Source: Eledone cirrhosa (lineage: Eukaryota). From it: a stretch of 64,000 bases of DNA. The stretch is taken from positions 104,532,001 to 104,596,000 of the forward strand of contig OZ024740.1 in the NCBI GenBank assembly GCA_964016885.1, in the 5' to 3' direction. Position 1 is the stretch's first letter. Every line of letters starts with the position of its first letter. Below, in pieces: positions 21,106-60,351 of this stretch. Position numbers and translations under genes: made by a program. The notes beneath the pieces were generated by a model. It saw nothing but the letters and a program-made list of their open reading frames with translations, searched no databases and was not told where the DNA came from.

Positions 21106-21136
<31 letters not shown>

Positions 21137-21139
<3 letters not shown>

Positions 21140-21568
21140 TATTTTGCAATACACTGTATGCTTAATTAAAAGCATTTCGAAGACCTTACGCTATTGTTTT
21201 AGAGTAGTGACAGTCTCACTTACTTTAAATTTTCAGCAAACAGGGGAGATAAAGCTGACAGAGCTCTGTTTCGTACTGATTGGTACTTATCAAAGCCAAG
21301 TACTCCACCTGTTTGCTGAAAATCATGAATGTTTGATTCTTATAGAATTCTAGTAATAATCAGGAACTGATTATACAGAGCAGTTGCCGGTCAAGCAGAA
21401 ATTGAAAATTAGAATTGGTGCTCTGAAATAGCGATATATATATGAATATATATATAATGTATTTTGCAATACACTGTATGCTTAATTAAAAGCATTTCGA
21501 AGACCTTACGATATTGTTTTACACTATATATACATTCATATATATATATCGCTATTTCAGAGCACCAA

Positions 21569-21575
<7 letters not shown>
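21137..21575 (-). mobile_element. Retrozyme-like element, locus 1 (320-bp period, inverted terminal piece)
   Basis: GTATTTTGCAATACAC recurs at 21139 and 21459; 21525-21575 inverts ~21408-21456; flanked by (TA)n; contains a hammerhead. Confidence 0.82.
21253..21297 (-). ncRNA. Type I hammerhead ribozyme, U3-A8 core variant
   Basis: Minus strand: ggct-TTGATAA-gtac caatca gtac-GAAA-cagagctctg-TC-agct. Confidence 0.85.
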
Positions 21576-26993: not shown

Positions 26994-29900
26994 GCTGCTC
27001 TCACACTCACCCTCACTCCTTGCCAACCAAACATAAATAAGCCTTGTTACAGGGGACTAAACCCAGAATTTGTCTCCTATTATTGATGGTCGCTTGTTCA
27101 GTTTTCTTCTACGAAATGTAACGTAAATATTTCATTTTCTTCTCAACTCTCCACATTCGGTTCATTCATCTATATATCTTACAATCCCCCAGAATCAAAA
27201 AATCGTATTCAAAATTGGCTTTCTATAATTCTGTTCTGTCTCACCGTTGTTCTAAAAATAATTCTGCTCCTCGCAAACTACCCCATACCCCTCCCTCCCG
27301 CCCCCACTCTCCACATTATTTGGACCAATCACAGGTAAACGACCTATGCTAGCACTTCTGGTTGCTTTTTCGATATGATGGATGAACTAGGGAATTTCTG
27401 GAGAGTCAGAAGAATATGGACACCCGAAGACAATGCAAAAGATAACGACAAATTCACCTCATGCTGCCGGACGAAAGGGCAAAGCCCCACCCTCTTTGTT
27501 GCGGCCGCGGATGGCCAACATAACCCCAACCCCATCAACCTCACCCCTCCCTGCACCTCACCCACCAAACGCAATCCAAAACTTCAGAGTTGGTACCATG
27601 AATGTAGGGACCTTAAAAGGCCGCTCAAACGAGGTTGTAGAAATGCTTGAACGTAAGGAGGTCGATGTTTGTTGTATTCAAGAGACAAGGTGGAGGGGAG
27701 GGTCTGCTAGATTCACTGTGGGTAAAAAACGATGCTATAAGCTTTTTTGGGTGAGAAATGACAATGGGCTGGGTGGGGTAGGAATCATGTTAGCAGAAAA
27801 ATGGGTGGATAAGATAGACGTAAATAGAGTAAACGACAGAATAATTAAAATAAGACTTGTTCTAAATAGAACTACTGTGACGATAATATCTGCGTACGCG
27901 CCCCAATCCGGACTGCCTGGCGCTATAAAAGACACTTTCTATGAAACACTGATGCTCACTACCTCCCAAATAACCGACAGTGACTATATAATTATTGCTG
28001 GCGACCTAAATGGTCACGTTGGACAACATTGTGATGGCTATGGTGAAATCCATCGAGGCTATGGGTTTGGTACTAGAAATGAGGAAGGCTCCAGAATCCT
28101 GGAATTCTGTGACGCAAATAACCTAACAATCTGTAACACTAACTTCAAAAAACGAGACAATCACTTGATCACCTACGGATCAGGGGAACATACCAGCCAG
28201 GTAGATTATATCCTTACCAGAAGACGTGACAGAGTGACTGTTGTAAATACTAAATCCCTCCCCCATGAAGAATGCACCTCCCCACATAGACTGATAATTA
28301 GCGACCTCATAGTCAGGACGAGACATACTCGACAGCAGAAGAGGACTATCCTCAGGAGAAAAATATGGAAGCTAAAGGACCCCACAGCCAGAAATAAATT
28401 TCAAAGCATATTACTTGATGCTTTCGACAGTAAGGAAGAGCATTTAGAGTCGGACAATATAGAGGGACAGTGGGAATTCCTGAAAGCAAACCTGCTGATG
28501 GCAGCAGACGAAGTCTGTGGCCAGAGCAGGCCTATAGGCAGGAGGAGAGTAACATGGTGGTGGAACAGTAAGGTGGAGGAGTCAATTAAGGCCAAAAAGC
28601 AGGCTTGGAAAGTATGGCGGGATGGGGGAAGTAGAGAAGACTATCAAGTGGCCAGGAGGGAAGCTAGGAGACAAGTGTACTTCGCAAGAAGGGAAGCAGA
28701 GGAAAGAAAGTTCAAGCATGTTCTACAACGCGAGGACCAAAAACGTGAGGTGTTCAGGATTGCTAGGCAATGTGTCAAGGAAAACCATGATATTGTTGGG
28801 GAGAAGTGTGTACTAAATGATGATGGCGTACTTGCCATCACTGACGCTGATAAGAAGGTCGCTTGGAAGTGTCACTACGAGAGGCTACTAAATGAGGAGA
28901 ATAAATGGGAGAAGGATAGTCTCCCCCAGATCGATCCAATAGAGGGACCAGCAGTGTTAGTTGAAGGTAGTATAATAAGTAAGGCAATCAAAGATATGAA
29001 GACGGGTAAGGCGGCTGGGCCTTCGGAAATAGTTGCTGAGATGCTGAAGGCCTCTGGAACGGTGGGACACACCATGGTCACCCGGATAGTAAACCAAGTC
29101 ATACAGAATGGGGTTGTTCCAAAGGACTGGCGTAGCAGCATCATCATTAACTGTTATAAGGGTAAAGGAGACGCTCTAGATAGGAGTAACTATAGAGGCA
29201 TTAAATTAATCGACCAGATCATGAAGGTCACGGAAAAAGTAATAGTGCAACTAATCAGAGAGAGAATCGATCTAGATGAAATGCAGTTCGGGTTTGTGTC
29301 AGGCAAAAGTACCACAGACGCTCTTTTCATTGTACGACAACTACAGGAGAAGTACCTAGCTAAAAGTAAACCCCTATACTTAGCCTTTGTCGACTTGGAG
29401 AAAGCCTTCGACAGAGTCCCCCGTTCCATTATCTGGTGGGCTCTTAGAAAACTAGGTGTTGACGAATGGCTTGTGAGAGCTATACAAGCCATGTATAAAA
29501 AAACAGTCAGCAAGGTTAGAATTAACAACGAATATAGTGAAGAGTTTAGCGTAAAAGTTGGTGTCCATCAGGGCTCTGTTCTCAGCCCCCTACTATTTAT
29601 TATTGCCCTTCAGGCTATAACAGAGGAGTTCAAGACCGGCTGCCCATGGGAACTCATATACGCAGATGATCTAACGCTCATAGCTGAATCAATGGCCGAG
29701 CTAGAGAAGAAATTCCAAACATGGAAGCACGGCCTAGAATCAAAAGGCCTTAAAATTAACCTGGCTAAGACTAAAGTTCTAGTTTGTAGGAAAGAAAATA
29801 AGGCGGCGGTCCCTTCCGGGAAATGGCCATGCTCAGTGTGTAGGAAAGGCGTAGGTAGAAACTCCATTTTGTGTCCCAAATGCAAAGTATGGGTGCATAA

Positions 29901-31243
29901 AAGATGTAGTGGAATCATAGGTAAGCTAACTAAGAACACAGATTTTACATGTGGCCGGTGCTCTGGTGCAATAAGTAGCAGCAAGTGCCCACGAAATACT
30001 AGCTCTTTCAATTGTGCAGAGGGTTCTATAGAAACAGTGGACAGCTTCCGTTACCTGGGTGACAAAATCAGCAGTGGGGGAGGGTGCTCTGAAAGTACAG
30101 TAGCTAGAGTCAGAACTGGATGGAAAAAGTTCAGAGAGCTTATACTACTATTAGCCGCTAAAGGGTTCTCCCTAAAAATGAAAGGCAGGTTGTATGATGC
30201 CTGCATACGAACAGCAATGCTGCATGGCAGTGAGACCTGGGCATTGTGTGCAGAGGATATACGCAGACTAGAGAGGAACGAAGCTTGCATGCTCCGCTGG
30301 ATGTGTAATAGTAATATACGCGAACGGCAAAGCATAAACGAACTAAGGAAAAAATTAGAAATAAGAGGGATCAGATGTTGTTTACTCAAGAGAAGGCTAC
30401 GTTGGTATGGTCACGTGATGCGCATGAAAGACGACAGCTGTATAGCAAAGTGCAGGGCAATAAAGATAGACGGTAGCCACGGAGTAGGCAGACCCAGAAA
30501 AACCTGGGACGAGCTGATAAATTCCAACCTCACACACTTACACCTCTCCAAATGAAAGACGACAGCTGTATAGCAAAGTGCAGGGCAATAAAGATAGACG
30601 GTAGTCACGGAGTAGGCAGACCCAGAAAAACCTGGGACGAGCTGATAAATTCCGACCTCACACACTTACACCTCTCCAAGACAATGTCACTGGACCGAGA
30701 CCTTTGGCGGTACTCAGTAATAAAGAAGACCCGCCTTACCTAAATACAAAGTAAAACCTACTACAGTCAGTAGGCATCTGTAACAAAATACACCCCCGTC
30801 CCACCACCCCCACACCACCCCTTTCAATGTAAAGTTATGTTGGTGCCACAACATCCAGGCCGAAACAAATGAGATCGTGTAGGTGTCACGACAAAAAAAA
30901 ACAAAAAAACACACAGTCCACGCTGTAAATGTGGGCGTGTAGGTAACACGGTAAAAACCTCCCAGCCCCACACTGTAAATGTGGTTGGTGTTAGGAAGGG
31001 CATCCAGCTGTAGAAAACCCGCCAGACAGTCCACGCTGTAATGTGGCTTTGTAGGCAACACGGTAAAAACCTCCCAGCCCCACACTGTAAATGTCGTTGG
31101 TGTTAGGAAGGGCATCCAACTGTAGAAAACCCGCCAGACAGTCCTATGCGAGCAAGACAACCACTCTTGCCTCAAGTGGGAAAACTCCCGTCCAAACCCA
31201 TGCAAGTGTGGAACATGGACGTTAAACGATGATGATGATGAAG
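26994..31243 (+). mobile_element. Near full-length RTE LINE (family A)
   Basis: Single long ORF, 3'UTR repeats and (GAT)n tail. Boundaries inferred from the MITE it splits. Confidence 0.92.
27433..30555 (+). CDS. RTE APE endonuclease-reverse transcriptase polyprotein with internal PHD finger
   Basis: 1040 aa: GTMNVGTL, IQETRW, AYAPQ, GDLNGH, VDYIL (APE); NYRGIKL, QFGF, FVDLEKAFD, QGSVLSP, YADD (RT). C-terminus clipped by a 128-bp duplication. Confidence 0.95.
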   Translation: MQKITTNSPHAAGRKGKAPPSLLRPRMANITPTPSTSPLPAPHPPNAIQNFRVGTMNVGTLKGRSNEVVEMLERKEVDVCCIQETRWRGGSARFTVGKKRCYKLFWVRNDNGLGGVGIMLAEKWVDKIDVNRVNDRIIKIRLVLNRTTVTIISAYAPQSGLPGAIKDTFYETLMLTTSQITDSDYIIIAGDLNGHVGQHCDGYGEIHRGYGFGTRNEEGSRILEFCDANNLTICNTNFKKRDNHLITYGSGEHTSQVDYILTRRRDRVTVVNTKSLPHEECTSPHRLIISDLIVRTRHTRQQKRTILRRKIWKLKDPTARNKFQSILLDAFDSKEEHLESDNIEGQWEFLKANLLMAADEVCGQSRPIGRRRVTWWWNSKVEESIKAKKQAWKVWRDGGSREDYQVARREARRQVYFARREAEERKFKHVLQREDQKREVFRIARQCVKENHDIVGEKCVLNDDGVLAITDADKKVAWKCHYERLLNEENKWEKDSLPQIDPIEGPAVLVEGSIISKAIKDMKTGKAAGPSEIVAEMLKASGTVGHTMVTRIVNQVIQNGVVPKDWRSSIIINCYKGKGDALDRSNYRGIKLIDQIMKVTEKVIVQLIRERIDLDEMQFGFVSGKSTTDALFIVRQLQEKYLAKSKPLYLAFVDLEKAFDRVPRSIIWWALRKLGVDEWLVRAIQAMYKKTVSKVRINNEYSEEFSVKVGVHQGSVLSPLLFIIALQAITEEFKTGCPWELIYADDLTLIAESMAELEKKFQTWKHGLESKGLKINLAKTKVLVCRKENKAAVPSGKWPCSVCRKGVGRNSILCPKCKVWVHKRCSGIIGKLTKNTDFTCGRCSGAISSSKCPRNTSSFNCAEGSIETVDSFRYLGDKISSGGGCSESTVARVRTGWKKFRELILLLAAKGFSLKMKGRLYDACIRTAMLHGSETWALCAEDIRRLERNEACMLRWMCNSNIRERQSINELRKKLEIRGIRCCLLKRRLRWYGHVMRMKDDSCIAKCRAIKIDGSHGVGRPRKTWDELINSNLTHLHLSK

Positions 31244-39075: not shown

Positions 39076-39078
<3 letters not shown>

Positions 39079-39462
39079 GCACATGGCTTAGTGGTTAGAG
39101 CATTGGCCTTGCAATCGAAAGGTTGTGAGTTCAATTCTCAGACCGAGTGATGTGTTGTTTCTTTGAGCAAGACACTTTATTTCACATTGCTCCAGTTTAC
39201 TCAGCTGTAGAAATGAGATGATAGGACTGGGGTCCCTATCATTCCACTGCAAAGTGGTCGTGGAGGTGCCAGAGCAAAAAAAAAAAAAGCACCCAGCCCA
39301 CACTGTAAAGTGGACGTGTAGGCGCCACGGAAAAAAAGCACCCAGCACTCACTGTAAATGAGGTTGGTGTTAGGAAGGGCATCCAGCTGTAGAAATCAAG
39401 CCAGAATCAGTTTCTGTCCCACTCTTGCAAGCAGGGAAAAGCGGACGTAAAATGATGATGAT
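39076..39462 (+). mobile_element. tRNA-derived SINE, family 2 (RTE-B tail)
   Basis: A box TGGCTTAGTGG, B box GTTCAATTC; 3' half matches the RTE-B 3'UTR; (GAT)n tail. Confidence 0.9.
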
Positions 39463-39649
39463 ATATATGTATATATATAAAAATTAGAATTGGAGCTCTG
39501 AAATAGCAATATATATATGGATGTATATATAATGTATTTTGCAATACACTTTATGCTTAATTAAAAGCATTTTGAAGACCGTAAGCTATTGTTTTTTTTT
39601 AGAGTAGTGACAAATTCACTTACTTTGATCTCAGCAAACAGGGGAGATA

Positions 39650-39694
39650 AGCCGACAAGGCCTTGTTTCGCTTTTGTTGAAGCTTATCAAGGCT
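39650..39694 (-). ncRNA. Type I hammerhead, U3-A8 variant
   Basis: Reverse complement reads agcc-TTGATAA-gctt caacaa aagc-GAAA-caaggccttg-TC-ggct. Confidence 0.87.
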
Positions 39695-39793
39695 AACTAC
39701 TCCCACCTGTCTACCGAGATCACTGATGTTATATTCTTATAGAATTCTAGTAAATAATCAGGAGCTGATTATGCAGAGCGGTTGTTGGTAGTT

Positions 39794-39838
39794 AGCCTTG
39801 ATAAGCTTCAACAAAAGCGAAACAAGGCCTTGTCGGCT
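39794..39838 (+). ncRNA. Type I hammerhead, U3-A8 variant
   Basis: agcc-TTGATAA-gctt caacaa aagc-GAAA-caaggccttg-TC-ggct; predicted cut after 39834. Confidence 0.87.
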
Positions 39839-40116
39839 TATCTCCCCTGTTTGCTGAGATCAAAGTAAGTGAATTTGTCACTACTCTAAAAAAAAACAAT
39901 AGCTTACGATCTTCAAAATGCTTTTAATTAAGCATAAAGTGTATTGCAAAATACATTATATATACATCCATATATATATTGCTATTTCAGAGCTCCAATT
40001 CTAATTTTTAATTTCTGCCTGACCAACAACCGCTCTGCATAATCAGCTCCTGATTATTTACTAGAATTCTATAAGAATATAACATCAGTGATCTCGGTAG
40101 ACAGGTAGGAGTAGTT

Positions 40117-40161
40117 AGCCTTGATAAGCTTCAACAAAAGCGAAACAAGGCCTTGTCGGCT
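40117..40161 (+). ncRNA. Type I hammerhead, U3-A8 variant
   Basis: Identical motif; predicted cut after 40157. Confidence 0.87.
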
Positions 40162-40320
40162 TATCTCCCCTGTTTGCTGAGATCAAAGTAAGTGAATTTG
40201 TCACTACTCTAAAAAAAAAAAACAATAGCTTACGGTCTTCAAAAGGCTTTTAATTAAGCATAAAGTGTATTGCAAAATACATTATATATACATCCATATA
40301 TATATATATATATATATATA

Positions 40321-56425: not shown

Positions 56426-58123
56426 CTAAATATAGACGGTGCTGCAAAATTTTTTGGGCCAGTGGACCCTACGACCTGAACGGGTCGTGGTCTTGTAACG
56501 TGGCGATGGTGGTGGTGTCGGGACAGGCGATGATGGTGGTTCAGGAACAGGCGTTCGCTCAACAGGCAAATACGAAGGGGTTCGTGGATCAGGAACCACA
56601 GCGTCCGTGTCAAGGAGCGCTTGCTTAAGCCTGTCTAATGTAACTGTCTCCCTGGACCCTTTAATATCTAAAGTGAAATGCTTAGCCGAGCGCGCTAAGA
56701 CGCGGTAAGGTCCAGTGTAAGGCTGTGTGAGTGGGGGCTTCACCGTATCATTCCTTACAAAGACATGCGTCCACGAGGCAATATCCCTCGGGACAGCAGT
56801 CTTGACAGTTTGTTTCCTAGTGTCCATTGGCGGCAAATCCTGGAAATAGGAGCGCAAACAGGACACGTAGGAAGCGTGATCTTGGGCATCAAGATCGATA
56901 GCGGCAAGCATTTGCCCGGGCAACGTCAGAGGGGCACCGTACAGTACTTCGGCCGGTGAAAATCCAAAGTCGACCTTCACCGTTGACCGAATCCCTAGTA
57001 GCACAATAGGGAGGTACTCGCTCCAATGCGCCGAGTCCATTGAGGCCATTAAGGAGGCCTTCAGTTGGCGGTGAAAACGCTCCACCATACCATTCGAAGC
57101 GGGTTGGTACGCCGTAGTTCTAATGCGTTTAGCACCAATTAATTTTGACAGCTCAAGGAAAAGGCTCGACTCGAACTGTCGTCCACGGTCGGTAGTTATT
57201 GTGGATGGAACTCCATATCGAGAGATCCATCCAGACACCAGAGCACGTGCTGTTGTCTCCGCGGTGATGTTTTTCAAGGGGATGGCCTCAGGCCATCTCG
57301 AAAAACGGTCAATGACGGTAAGTAGATAAGAAAAACCATCGCTGACAGGCCAAGGTCCCACTATGTCAATATGAATATGTGAAAAACGCGCATCTGGGTT
57401 AGCAAAGGTACCCAGGGGAGCCTTGACGTGTCGATGGACCTTTGATCTCTGGCAAGCGACGCAGGAACGGCACCAAGCAGCAATTTCACGCCTCATATTT
57501 GGCCAGAAAAATCTAGCTGATATGAGGTTTGCTGTGGCAGAAGATCCTGGATGCGAGATACAATGTAATCCCAGAAACACGGTCCGACGATGATTCTCTG
57601 GAACGAAGGGCCTAGGCATGTCCAAAGAGACGTCACAGAGAATTTGGCCAACTGCAGTCGACAGAGGCAAGTATTTCATCTCGCAATTCACAAACTCGGG
57701 CGATGTGACATCCAATGACTCAAGGGGAGGCTGATCCCCAGCCAATCGAGTCAGATCTATGTCAGAGGATGACGAGATCGCTGTCACGGGTAAGCGGGAC
57801 AAAGCATCAGCCGCTGTATTTAGTGAACCCGGAATGTGCTGGATATCACTCGTATATTGCGAGATGAAATCAAGGTGTCTCGTCTCTCTGGGCGAGTATT
57901 TATCAGCCTTCGCTCTCAAAGCAAAAGTCAATGGTTTATGGTCAGTGAGGATAGTAAATTGTCTACCCTCTAGCACATGTGAAAAATGTTTCACGGCCAA
58001 ATAGATGGCTAAAAGCTCTCTTCCAAAGGTGCTGTAGCGTGTCTCAGCAGGATTTAGCTTTTTGGAAAAAAACTCCAGCGGTTGCTGGTAACCATTGATG
58101 TTTTGCTGTAGCACTGCGCCCAC
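56426..58123 (-). CDS. Gypsy RNase H-integrase (open segment of pol)
   Basis: [50 protein letters not shown]. Confidence 0.9.
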
Positions 58124-58152
58124 AGCGATATCCGATGCATCAACACAAAGCG

Positions 58153-60351
58153 TCAGCTTTGCACCGGGTGAGTCAGTAACGAAGCATTAGCCAAAACAGT
58201 TTTGGCGTGCTGAAAATCAGCAAGTTGAGTGTCTGTCAAAGAAATATCTTTGTTCTTTCTCCGACAATTTTTCAAAATTTCTGTCAGGGAGAAAAGCAAT
58301 TTTGCACAATTTGGCACGAAACGCCTATAAAAGTTAACCAGACCTAAGAACTGGCGTAACTGACGTAGTGAGGTCGGTGGAGGCAAATCCTCTATGACCT
58401 TAACTCGCTCAGGCCAGGGTCGAATACCGTCAGCATCGATGACGTGACCCAAGAAAGTCAGTGACTCAGCACCAAAAACACATTTGGGTGCATTAAGCTG
58501 CACGTTATACGCCTTCAATCGGCGGAAAAGAAGATTCAAATGGTGCGTATGCTGCTCTGGAGAAGAACTAGCAATGAGCAGGTCATCAATATAGGTATAG
58601 ATGAAATCGAGGCCGCGAGTAACCTCATCCATAAACCGCTGAAAAGTACTAGCGGCATTCCTTAATCCGAACGGCATAGTCAAAAACTCGAAAGACCCAA
58701 ATGGCGTAACTATAGCCGTTTTTGGAATGTCATTTTTATGGACAGGAATTTGATGGTACGCACGAATTAAATCCAGTTTGGCAAATATCTTGCATCCCTG
58801 CAACGAAGACGCAGTCTTGCAGATGAGGGATAGGATAACGGTCCGGAACAGTTATCGAATTCAGGCGTCGATAATCTCCAGTAGGTCTCCAATCGCCATT
58901 CGCTTTCGGTACCATGTGTAATGGGGACGCCCACGGGCTCGTGGACGGACGAATAATCCCCATTTGCAGCATATGATCAAACTCTGATCGTGCTGCTTTG
59001 AGTTTGTCCGGAGGCAAGCGACGAGGACGAGAGAAAACGGGAGCACCAGTTGTAGATATGAAGTGCTCCGTGGTATGAGTTGGTTCATCAAATCGAAAAT
59101 TTCCCCGAGTCAGTTGCGGGAACGAGTTCAACAACGCATGGAAAGGATCACCGGTGTTAGCAAGAAAAAATGTCGGGCTAACCGTTGGAACTCCTGCTGC
59201 CTTGCCAACAACAGTTAATCCCGTGATGCCATCAATTAGGCGTTTACCACGAAGGTCCACCGTCAATGAAAAATGGTGGAGAAAATCCGCGCCTAGAATC
59301 GGATACGGCAAGGCAGCGACAGTAAATATCCATTTAAACTCGCGCCGCAGATTACGAAACTGCAAAGGTAACGAGATTTGTCCGAAAGTTCGAATAGGCG
59401 AACAATTTACTCAATAACTCAATAGGCGTCTCAGGGGGAGTCTCCTTCATACAATACACAGGCCATACGGAACAAGCTGCACCTGTGTCAACCAGAAAAG
59501 CTCTACCTGACAGCAGGTCCTCAATGAAAAAGTGGCGGTTAGATGTCGTTTCGCAGAGCGCACTATCCGCCGTTAGTGACTCTGGTCGTCTTTTCCCTCG
59601 TAAGCACAACGAGGCCTACAACGGGCGGCTTTTTTACCATATCTTTCATGGTAATAACAATATGGTGTTCCTGGTGTGTTGGAAGGGCTACGGTGGCGAG
59701 AAGTTGAATAACGTCGTGAGCGGCTCCTCTGCCGTCCAAAGGACCTGAATTCCTTGCACAACTCCGCCATTTGACGAGTCATGGCTTCCATTGTGGTGAT
59801 TAAATTGCCATCAGATGCTGATGAGCGTGATTGAGGAAGAGAAGAGGAAGCAACGTACTTTGGCTTCGAAGTGTCTCTCTTCGTCACCTCTACAATTTTG
59901 TCAGCAGAGACAGCAATGTGATCCAGCGTATTCACCTCTAGCATATGGGCTAGGATCGCCTGTACCTCTTGAGGTAGGCGAGAGAAGAACAATTGCTTCA
60001 GGAAAGGGCTATCCTGATCTTGGGAATTGCTCAAATCCCGCAAATGCCGGAGAAAAGCGGTAGGAGTCCTGTCACCTAATCGTTCGTCCTCGATCAATGA
60101 CCGAAAACGACTCTCTACCGACTTACAATTCCTCCTCAAAATCTTGCCCTTCAAAAACTCATACGTCAAGTCAGAGGGGGGGGGTCTGTAATTAGGTCTT
60201 GGACCGAATCTGCTAGATTAGGGGGAAGGCCGCTAATCAGTACAGCGAGGCGCTGGTCAGATTCGGTCTTACAGACCGTAAAATACGCCTGTAACTGGGC
60301 AAACCACATCTTAGGTTTTCCAGTAAAGGCGGGCAAATGTGGCACATTCAT
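58153..60351 (-). pseudogene. Gypsy gag-protease-RT, frameshifted
   Basis: ORF pieces 60166-60414, 59573-60169, 59352-59609, 58736-59365 and 58153-58803. Confidence 0.9.

Follow-up and report, generated by a model that had tools for sequence, protein, structure and literature searches.

How a short non-coding repeat with hammerhead ribozymes is returned to DNA, and from what kind of RNA template, is the question raised by a locus of the Eledone cirrhosa genome (3.0 Gb). It lies in the 64,000-nucleotide stretch that we analysed (positions 104,532,001 to 104,596,000 of contig OZ024740.1), hereafter the window, in whose coordinates features are given. An initial annotation had recognised a candidate retrozyme, a monomer bounded by two identical variant-core hammerheads. 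The two motifs are indeed identical: on the plus strand, hammerhead 1 (39794-39838) and hammerhead 2 (40117-40161) have their cores at 39798 and 40121 and predicted cuts after the GUC triplets ending at 39834 and 40157, 323 nt apart. Hammerhead 2 is complete; hammerhead 1 is 5'-truncated and lacks the 5' strand of distal stem I. The monomer between both predicted cuts (39835-40157, plus strand), a candidate circle, is highly paired and non-coding (at most 43 codons from stop to stop on both strands), with a GC content of 34%. All the hairpins that had been listed for it are present in the predicted folds, and so is the 17-bp extension of stem I, which contains three G-U pairs. The 5' strand of this distal stem (40089-40105, plus strand) would pair with 39846-39862 in the monomer and with 40169-40185 in the precursor; the construct of 39780-40170 that had been proposed for in vitro cleavage would lose the latter strand.

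The two-hammerhead monomer is only a part of the insertion, the true limits of which (39478-40305, no strand assigned, ends blurred by (TA)n) the initial annotation had missed, together with a third, identical hammerhead. Self-comparison of the window revealed an inverted, 5'-truncated arm of 312 nt (39478-39789, minus strand) and a direct, partially tandem arm of about 515 nt or ~1.6 units (39788-40305, plus strand), which meet at their 5' ends, at unit positions +188 and +277, respectively. The inverted arm has a long 3' end with a tail and carries hammerhead 3 (39650-39694, minus strand; U3-A8 core starting at 39690, predicted cut after 39654), and the direct arm has a short 3' end without a tail. 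Inside the direct arm, the position of the short 3' end falls in an internal AT run (39969-39979, plus strand), the presumed first start site of reverse transcription; it is followed by the tail sequence (39980-40005, plus strand), whose end would be the second start site. TA repeats are found on both flanks, with a TA-rich target remnant on the left (39462-39479) and a (TA)n remnant on the right (40296-40320), and the whole insertion sits within (TA)n, in which target-site duplications are not readable.

A transcript spanning the whole insertion is predicted to fold back over ~340 base pairs, with hammerhead 2 buried. Since the inverted arm would pair with sense copies, this locus is a poor candidate for producing circles; the predicted fold points to double-stranded RNA as its more likely product, and arrays with a single long arm would be better suited to yield circles. 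No promoter was identified for the element, and the T runs inside the unit argue against transcription of multimers by polymerase III. The rest of the window consists of LINE, LTR and simple repeats. By eye, a SINE-like repeat with a tRNA-like head lies just upstream of the insertion (39077-39220). A LINE with an intact endonuclease/reverse-transcriptase frame of 1,054 codons (27391-30555), which we take to be RTE-like, has many near-identical fragments across the window, and an LTR retrotransposon (56426-60217, minus strand) has its Gag, protease, reverse transcriptase and integrase frames in several pieces.

The element is young, dispersed and non-coding. We call its family A, and B, C and D three sister families with the same 3' region; the 3-8 core pair is U-A in A and B and C-G in C and D. 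An exact 30-nt ribozyme core has 470 genomic copies, the 33-nt 3' motif 1,649 and the tail motif, common to the sister families, 24,167, against 0 for each reversed control, so that the ribozyme motif is not due to chance. With the monomer as query, 177 matches were obtained from 40 of 1,589 candidates, the full-length ones being 89-100% identical and many of them lying in arrays. The repeat length of 323 nt, correct at this locus, is owed to an A run; units of the family measure 316-323 nt, usually 316-320 nt, and occur in arrays of five and more. The window holds a second, independent insertion, from family B (21107-21575, minus strand; ~84% identical, U3-A8, compensatory stems, short inverted arm). 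Family D (L260-L265) has a canonical core, a minimal stem III and much longer arms, of up to ~10 units; as these long arms are essentially mutation-free, the family is probably active now. A further type of small two-armed hammerhead insertion (L074:4198-4327; L269) has a different tail and is family D-like around the core. Contigs from four of the six runs listed (X1, X4, X5 and X6) cover parts of the stretch, an observation of presence only, and runs X4, X5 and X6, labelled as three other organisms, contain low-depth contigs of 93-151 nt almost identical to portions of the element.

We then asked whether the hammerhead is a genuine ribozyme. The conserved core residues are all present (U4 G5 A6, A9, G12 A13 A14, A15.1-U16.1 and H17) and the 3-8 pair is Watson-Crick, U-A in the window copies and C-G in sister families. 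The ribozyme domain and the monomer fold with z scores of -5.4 and -6.2, none of 200 and none of 100 shuffled sequences, respectively, being equally stable. The comparison with Rfam that had been suggested did match hammerhead models, but only below threshold: the three hammerheads score 22-24 bits against HH9 (cut-off 52; E 0.003-0.009), and at gathering score nothing matches anywhere in the 64-kb window. A genome scan with a hammerhead pattern in which positions 3 and 8 were left free gave 5,734 matches versus 2 in the control. By eye, the first 100 matches listed comprise 76 U-A, 19 C-G and 5 mismatched pairs, and among the matches listed pairing is kept in many different stem II sequences. 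The sister families have compensatory changes in all three helices and in the 3-8 pair. Across families A, B and C, 96% of cells of the well-aligned core, on which alone pairs were counted, are paired, and 6 of the 13 pairs, including 3-8, have changed on both sides; independent events are few in this set of 10 sequences from three related families, yet none of 500 shuffles scored as high, slid controls reached 18-47%, and neither kind of control approached the observed pairing or covariation score. RNAalifold, misled by a one-column misalignment of the distal stem, returned a shifted, non-hammerhead consensus, which we discarded. These sequence comparisons, with the family architecture, bear out the initial identification of a hammerhead and a non-LTR retrozyme, and indicate a type I ribozyme, with its stem I open, that is under selection. 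Of 85 motifs, at least 68 retain an intact core, and parsing errors account for some of the remaining 17.

Stem III is of 4 bp with a loop of 3-4 nt and includes a compensatory pair that flips between subfamilies within family A. It is palindromic only in some subfamilies, and family A does not have the form of minimal hammerheads, in which stem III is absent or a short palindrome. An obligate dimer was considered, as the palindromic stem III of the window copy dimerises well in silico, but a dimer is not required, the commoner 316-nt subfamily not being palindromic. Dimeric hammerhead variants were reportedly described in Penelope elements in a 2017 paper. Invariance is seen in two A's of loop 2, which resembles the Rfam HH9 consensus, and in one U within the internal loop of stem I, where a loop 1-loop 2 tertiary contact might form. 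Among the matches listed and in L097, the closing pair of stem II tracks the core (G-C with U3-A8, A-U or U-U with C3-G8), which may reflect one historical switch or a functional coupling. Nearest-neighbour modelling, which takes no account of core and tertiary contacts, predicts that an inactive fold is favoured over the active one by 3-7 kcal/mol in 5 of 5 ribozymes (window 40117-40150, L182, L214, L097 and the family B copy of the window) and in the circle; in it, the start of the core, or a similar segment, is paired with stem III. One might speculate that such a fold could protect circles from self-cleavage. All in all, we consider the ribozyme likely to be catalytically active. Its U3-A8 core, regarded by the initial annotation as a tolerated covariation, is not the novelty here: its presence in Penelope elements of Schistosoma, and a search descriptor made for it, have already been published (PMC4209133, accessible part).

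What the initial annotation overlooked is the structure of the insertion, which accounts for how the element moves. We examined 61 family A insertions picked by their 3' motif (41 in chromosome order and 20 by a 79-nt query). Two complete arms are present in 45 of them, and in 44 of these 45 one 3' end lies near +140 from the cut and the other near +166, with a tail of 26-31 nt at one end only. The 3' ends of family D are at +139 and at +163 to +165 in 8 cases out of 8. The target is equally constrained: 60 of 71 3' ends reach (TA)3, versus 329 of 1,449 flank positions (23%). This combination of a partial tandem with an inverted, 5'-truncated copy is Penelope-like and not LTR-like. According to Craig et al. 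(2021, PMC8557442, accessible part), Penelope-like insertions form partial tandems that include an inverted copy truncated at its 5' end, bear a tail of 30-40 bp on one side and target microsatellites, and the tail is reported to span the gap between two internal reverse-transcription start sites (Frangieh et al. 2024, PMC11167929, accessible part). By analogy, the paired 3' ends of our families suggest the two-start-site tail of a Penelope reverse transcriptase, and we regard a Penelope-type mobilisation of the element as very probable.

The element has no reverse transcriptase or GIY-YIG reading frame and could only be non-autonomous. Coding elements with reverse transcriptase and GIY-YIG domains are abundant in the genome, in (TA)n and with paired ends of the same kind; the closest named relatives of one such Penelope protein are in Octopus bimaculoides (77% over 60% of the query) and Argonauta hians. 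Minimal hammerhead-like motifs, 45 in all, are found in 35 of 50 GIY-YIG loci, and 37 of the 45 have U3-A8, which is therefore the usual hammerhead core of coding Penelope elements in this genome. In one coding family (L039, L041, L073, L074 and related loci), all 11 motifs listed combine U3-A8 with C for A13 (GCAA for GAAA). No coding element with the family A 3' sequence was found among 80 loci (the 50 GIY-YIG loci and 30 of one further family) sampled from thousands of candidates; two hits, L032 and L303, are separate nested insertions.

The copies also carry information on the template. The cut site is crossed at least once by 91 of 106 arms, twice by 26 and three times by 15, in a sample whose selection somewhat favours longer arms. 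The 5' ends are random: in a set chosen without regard to the 5' end there is no excess at the cut, 14 of 104 falling in +1 to +25 where 10.6% were expected (p = 0.21). A pile-up of 5' ends after the cut, taken for a sign of cleavage in vivo, was seen only in best-hit loci and was dismissed as a selection bias. With copying initiated within the unit, no more than ~170 nt could be obtained from a cut linear monomer, and the crossing of the cuts without an excess of 5' ends implies a template that is circular or uncut, or an enzyme that jumps from one monomer to another. The two arms of an insertion derive from one kind of template, as they disagree at only 27 of 903 diagnostic sites (3%), versus 42,413 of 186,764 (23%) between loci.

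On the nature of the template, family A agrees with family D only in part. In family D, 59 complete units from 6 insertions have 7 variable columns (5 of them inside the hammerhead), each fixed within an insertion across both arms, with only 2 stray differences; there are 5 haplotypes among the 6 insertions, and in every insertion both arms consist of a single haplotype, present up to 13 times. Such uniformity is what repeated copying of a single monomer per insertion would be expected to produce. In family A, 12 array-private differences are fixed in 5 arrays (15 rows, one array being counted twice), but the arrays L007, L182 and L205 are haplotype mosaics, which one monomer circle cannot give and which need multimeric templates, switching or later exchange. 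The five units of L007 alternate between two haplotypes (X X Y X Y), an arrangement that template switching or a mixed multimer may have produced. Of the locus-private variants, 149 are confined to a single unit and 15 are shared, which also counts against the copying of one monomer, though later mutation would explain the former. Weighing the copies together, we favour the circle, and it is somewhat more probable than not that a circular monomer was the main template.

From these features we infer cleavage, a circle and the identity of the enzyme, and find it on balance probable that the element belongs to the non-LTR retrozymes and is a Penelope-like, non-autonomous retroelement that rolling-circle reverse transcription copies. 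Tandem arrays would give rise to read-through transcripts, in each unit of which the type I hammerhead would make one cut, and monomers of 316-323 nt, their ends clamped by the long stem, would be ligated into circles, host tRNA ligase being the proposed enzyme (PMC7229834, accessible part). The RT/GIY-YIG protein of a coding Penelope-like element would nick (TA)n DNA, and cDNA would start at two internal sites, ~140 and ~166 nt past the cut, one per DNA strand, by analogy with the system of PMC11167929, as far as that paper is accessible. Copying would proceed round the template for a random length, and the two cDNAs would join at their far ends, leaving two arms, one inverted and one tandem, and a tail on one side only. 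Against this explanation count the stable inactive fold, the family A mosaics, the partner search, negative among 80 loci, and two published results, both from partly accessible sources: in the Anolis Penelope system cleavage is dispensable and unprocessed RNA is the main substrate (PMC11167929), and 8 of 9 Xenopus retrozymes were without cleavage in vitro, 1 of 9 being active (preprint 10.64898/2026.07.22.740005).

The same element and enzyme could instead have worked from linear RNA left uncut as a multimer, or by template jumping from monomer to monomer. The hammerhead would then be slow, protein-dependent or employed at another step, and circles would be a by-product or absent. This is possible, if rather unlikely. 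The mosaic arrays fit it, the lack of a 5'-end excess at the cut suits uncut RNA as well as a circle, the predicted inactive fold is in its favour, and hammerhead mutants left insertion by the Anolis protein unchanged (PMC11167929, accessible part). Yet linear copying shortens arrays at each round and cannot fix a new variant in all units, whereas in family D the insertions, with as many as 13 complete units, are internally uniform and differ among themselves; the conserved long stem that clamps both ends of the monomer also counts against it. Local growth is a more distant alternative, in which unequal crossing-over turned single Penelope end fragments into minisatellites, a possibility considered in the accessible part of 10.64898/2026.07.22.740005. 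Head-to-tail arrays are more alike within than between loci (5.2 versus 13.6 differences per unit) and some are mosaic, which speaks for it, but the inverted arms are both multimeric with shared haplotypes, the ends are fixed at the same two sites, the youngest arrays are nearly free of later mutations and no coding parent appeared among the 80 loci sampled, so that we judge it improbable. Least probable of all, to a degree that makes it hardly credible, is a dead relic, the change to U3-A8 having killed the hammerhead of a retroposed non-coding repeat: the score under the Rfam cut-off and the predicted inactive fold agree with it, but stems II and III have still changed compensatorily inside U3-A8 families, whose core is mostly intact and is the common one of the coding elements. 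A-to-I editing fixed by retroposition was also considered and received no support (13 A>G versus 12 T>C in 43 units).

Returning to the rolling-circle reading, one might go further and propose, as a tentative but quite possible idea, that each young insertion is a DNA record of one ribozyme-made circle of 310-323 nt, primed twice by a Penelope reverse transcriptase and rolled up to ~10 times per arm. If true, this would be direct genomic evidence for a circular RNA as a transposition intermediate in animals; variation would enter at the RNA stage, concentrated in the ribozyme, and the conserved inactive fold may prevent the circle from cutting itself. How animal retrozymes return to DNA has been discussed in terms of Penelope proteins and circular templates (PMC7229834 and 10.64898/2026.07.22.740005, accessible parts). 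The families described here put a Penelope-specific footprint on a very young and numerous non-coding hammerhead repeat. New here are the fixed paired 3' ends, the absence of a 5'-end excess at the cut and the uniform-haplotype insertions of sister family D. The footprint and the uniform arrays are of value because they link retrozymes with reverse transcription by Penelope and open the question of a circular template to experiment, with a 320-nt substrate whose presumed start sites are mapped for probing rolling-circle reverse transcription and with C3-G8 and U3-A8 ribozymes that form a natural series on a common scaffold.

In the open literature we found no report of a cephalopod retrozyme and no paper on family A, although repeat databases and closed supplements may hold the family; the accessible part of an O. 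vulgaris repeat annotation (PMC13282606) nowhere mentions ribozymes. The comparisons that follow refer to the accessible parts of the papers cited. At the DNA level family A has the features of non-LTR retrozymes, tandem units within 150-450 nt with one hammerhead each, non-coding and with a GC content below 50%. It thus resembles the retrozymes of coral, mussel and axolotl (Cervera and de la Pena 2020, PMC7229834), which are non-coding tandem units of a few hundred nt and low GC, with one type I hammerhead per unit, a highly paired monomer and thousands of copies. It differs from them in the U3-A8 core, the inverted arm, the two fixed internal 3' ends and the (TA)n target; "inverted" does not occur in the main text of that paper, and the inverted arm, fixed 3' ends and (TA)n are undescribed in the text examined. 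RNA circles have been demonstrated for those retrozymes, whereas family A is known here from DNA.

With the Penelope-like elements that have a C-terminal GIY-YIG domain (Neptune, Penelope/Poseidon; PMC8557442, PMC11167929), family A shares partial tandems, an inverted 5'-truncated copy, a one-end tail, an AT-rich target and a hammerhead 5' of two internal start sites; it differs in having no reading frame, a tail of 26-31 nt versus 30-40, and a 4-bp stem III with a long stem I in place of the minimal form. The same U3-A8 is found in the Cercyon elements of Schistosoma (Cervera and de la Pena 2014, PMC4209133; ~1,300 matches), whose hammerheads are minimal and mostly single, while in family A the variant is in a full-size ribozyme of tandem units. 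Similar in organisation are the non-autonomous Chlamys elements, such as MRC1 (PMC8557442), likewise non-coding, multicopy, head-to-tail Penelope-like insertions, which however share their 3' sequence with coding partners and belong to a clade without canonical hammerheads. Finally, Li, Clavereau and Pollet (bioRxiv 10.64898/2026.07.22.740005) have arrived at the same conclusion, that animal retrozymes depend on Penelope-like elements, from co-occurrence and pLTR similarity in Xenopus, with no mollusc sampled and the mode of mobilisation left open; no similar pLTR was found here, and our evidence is instead the footprint of the insertion itself.
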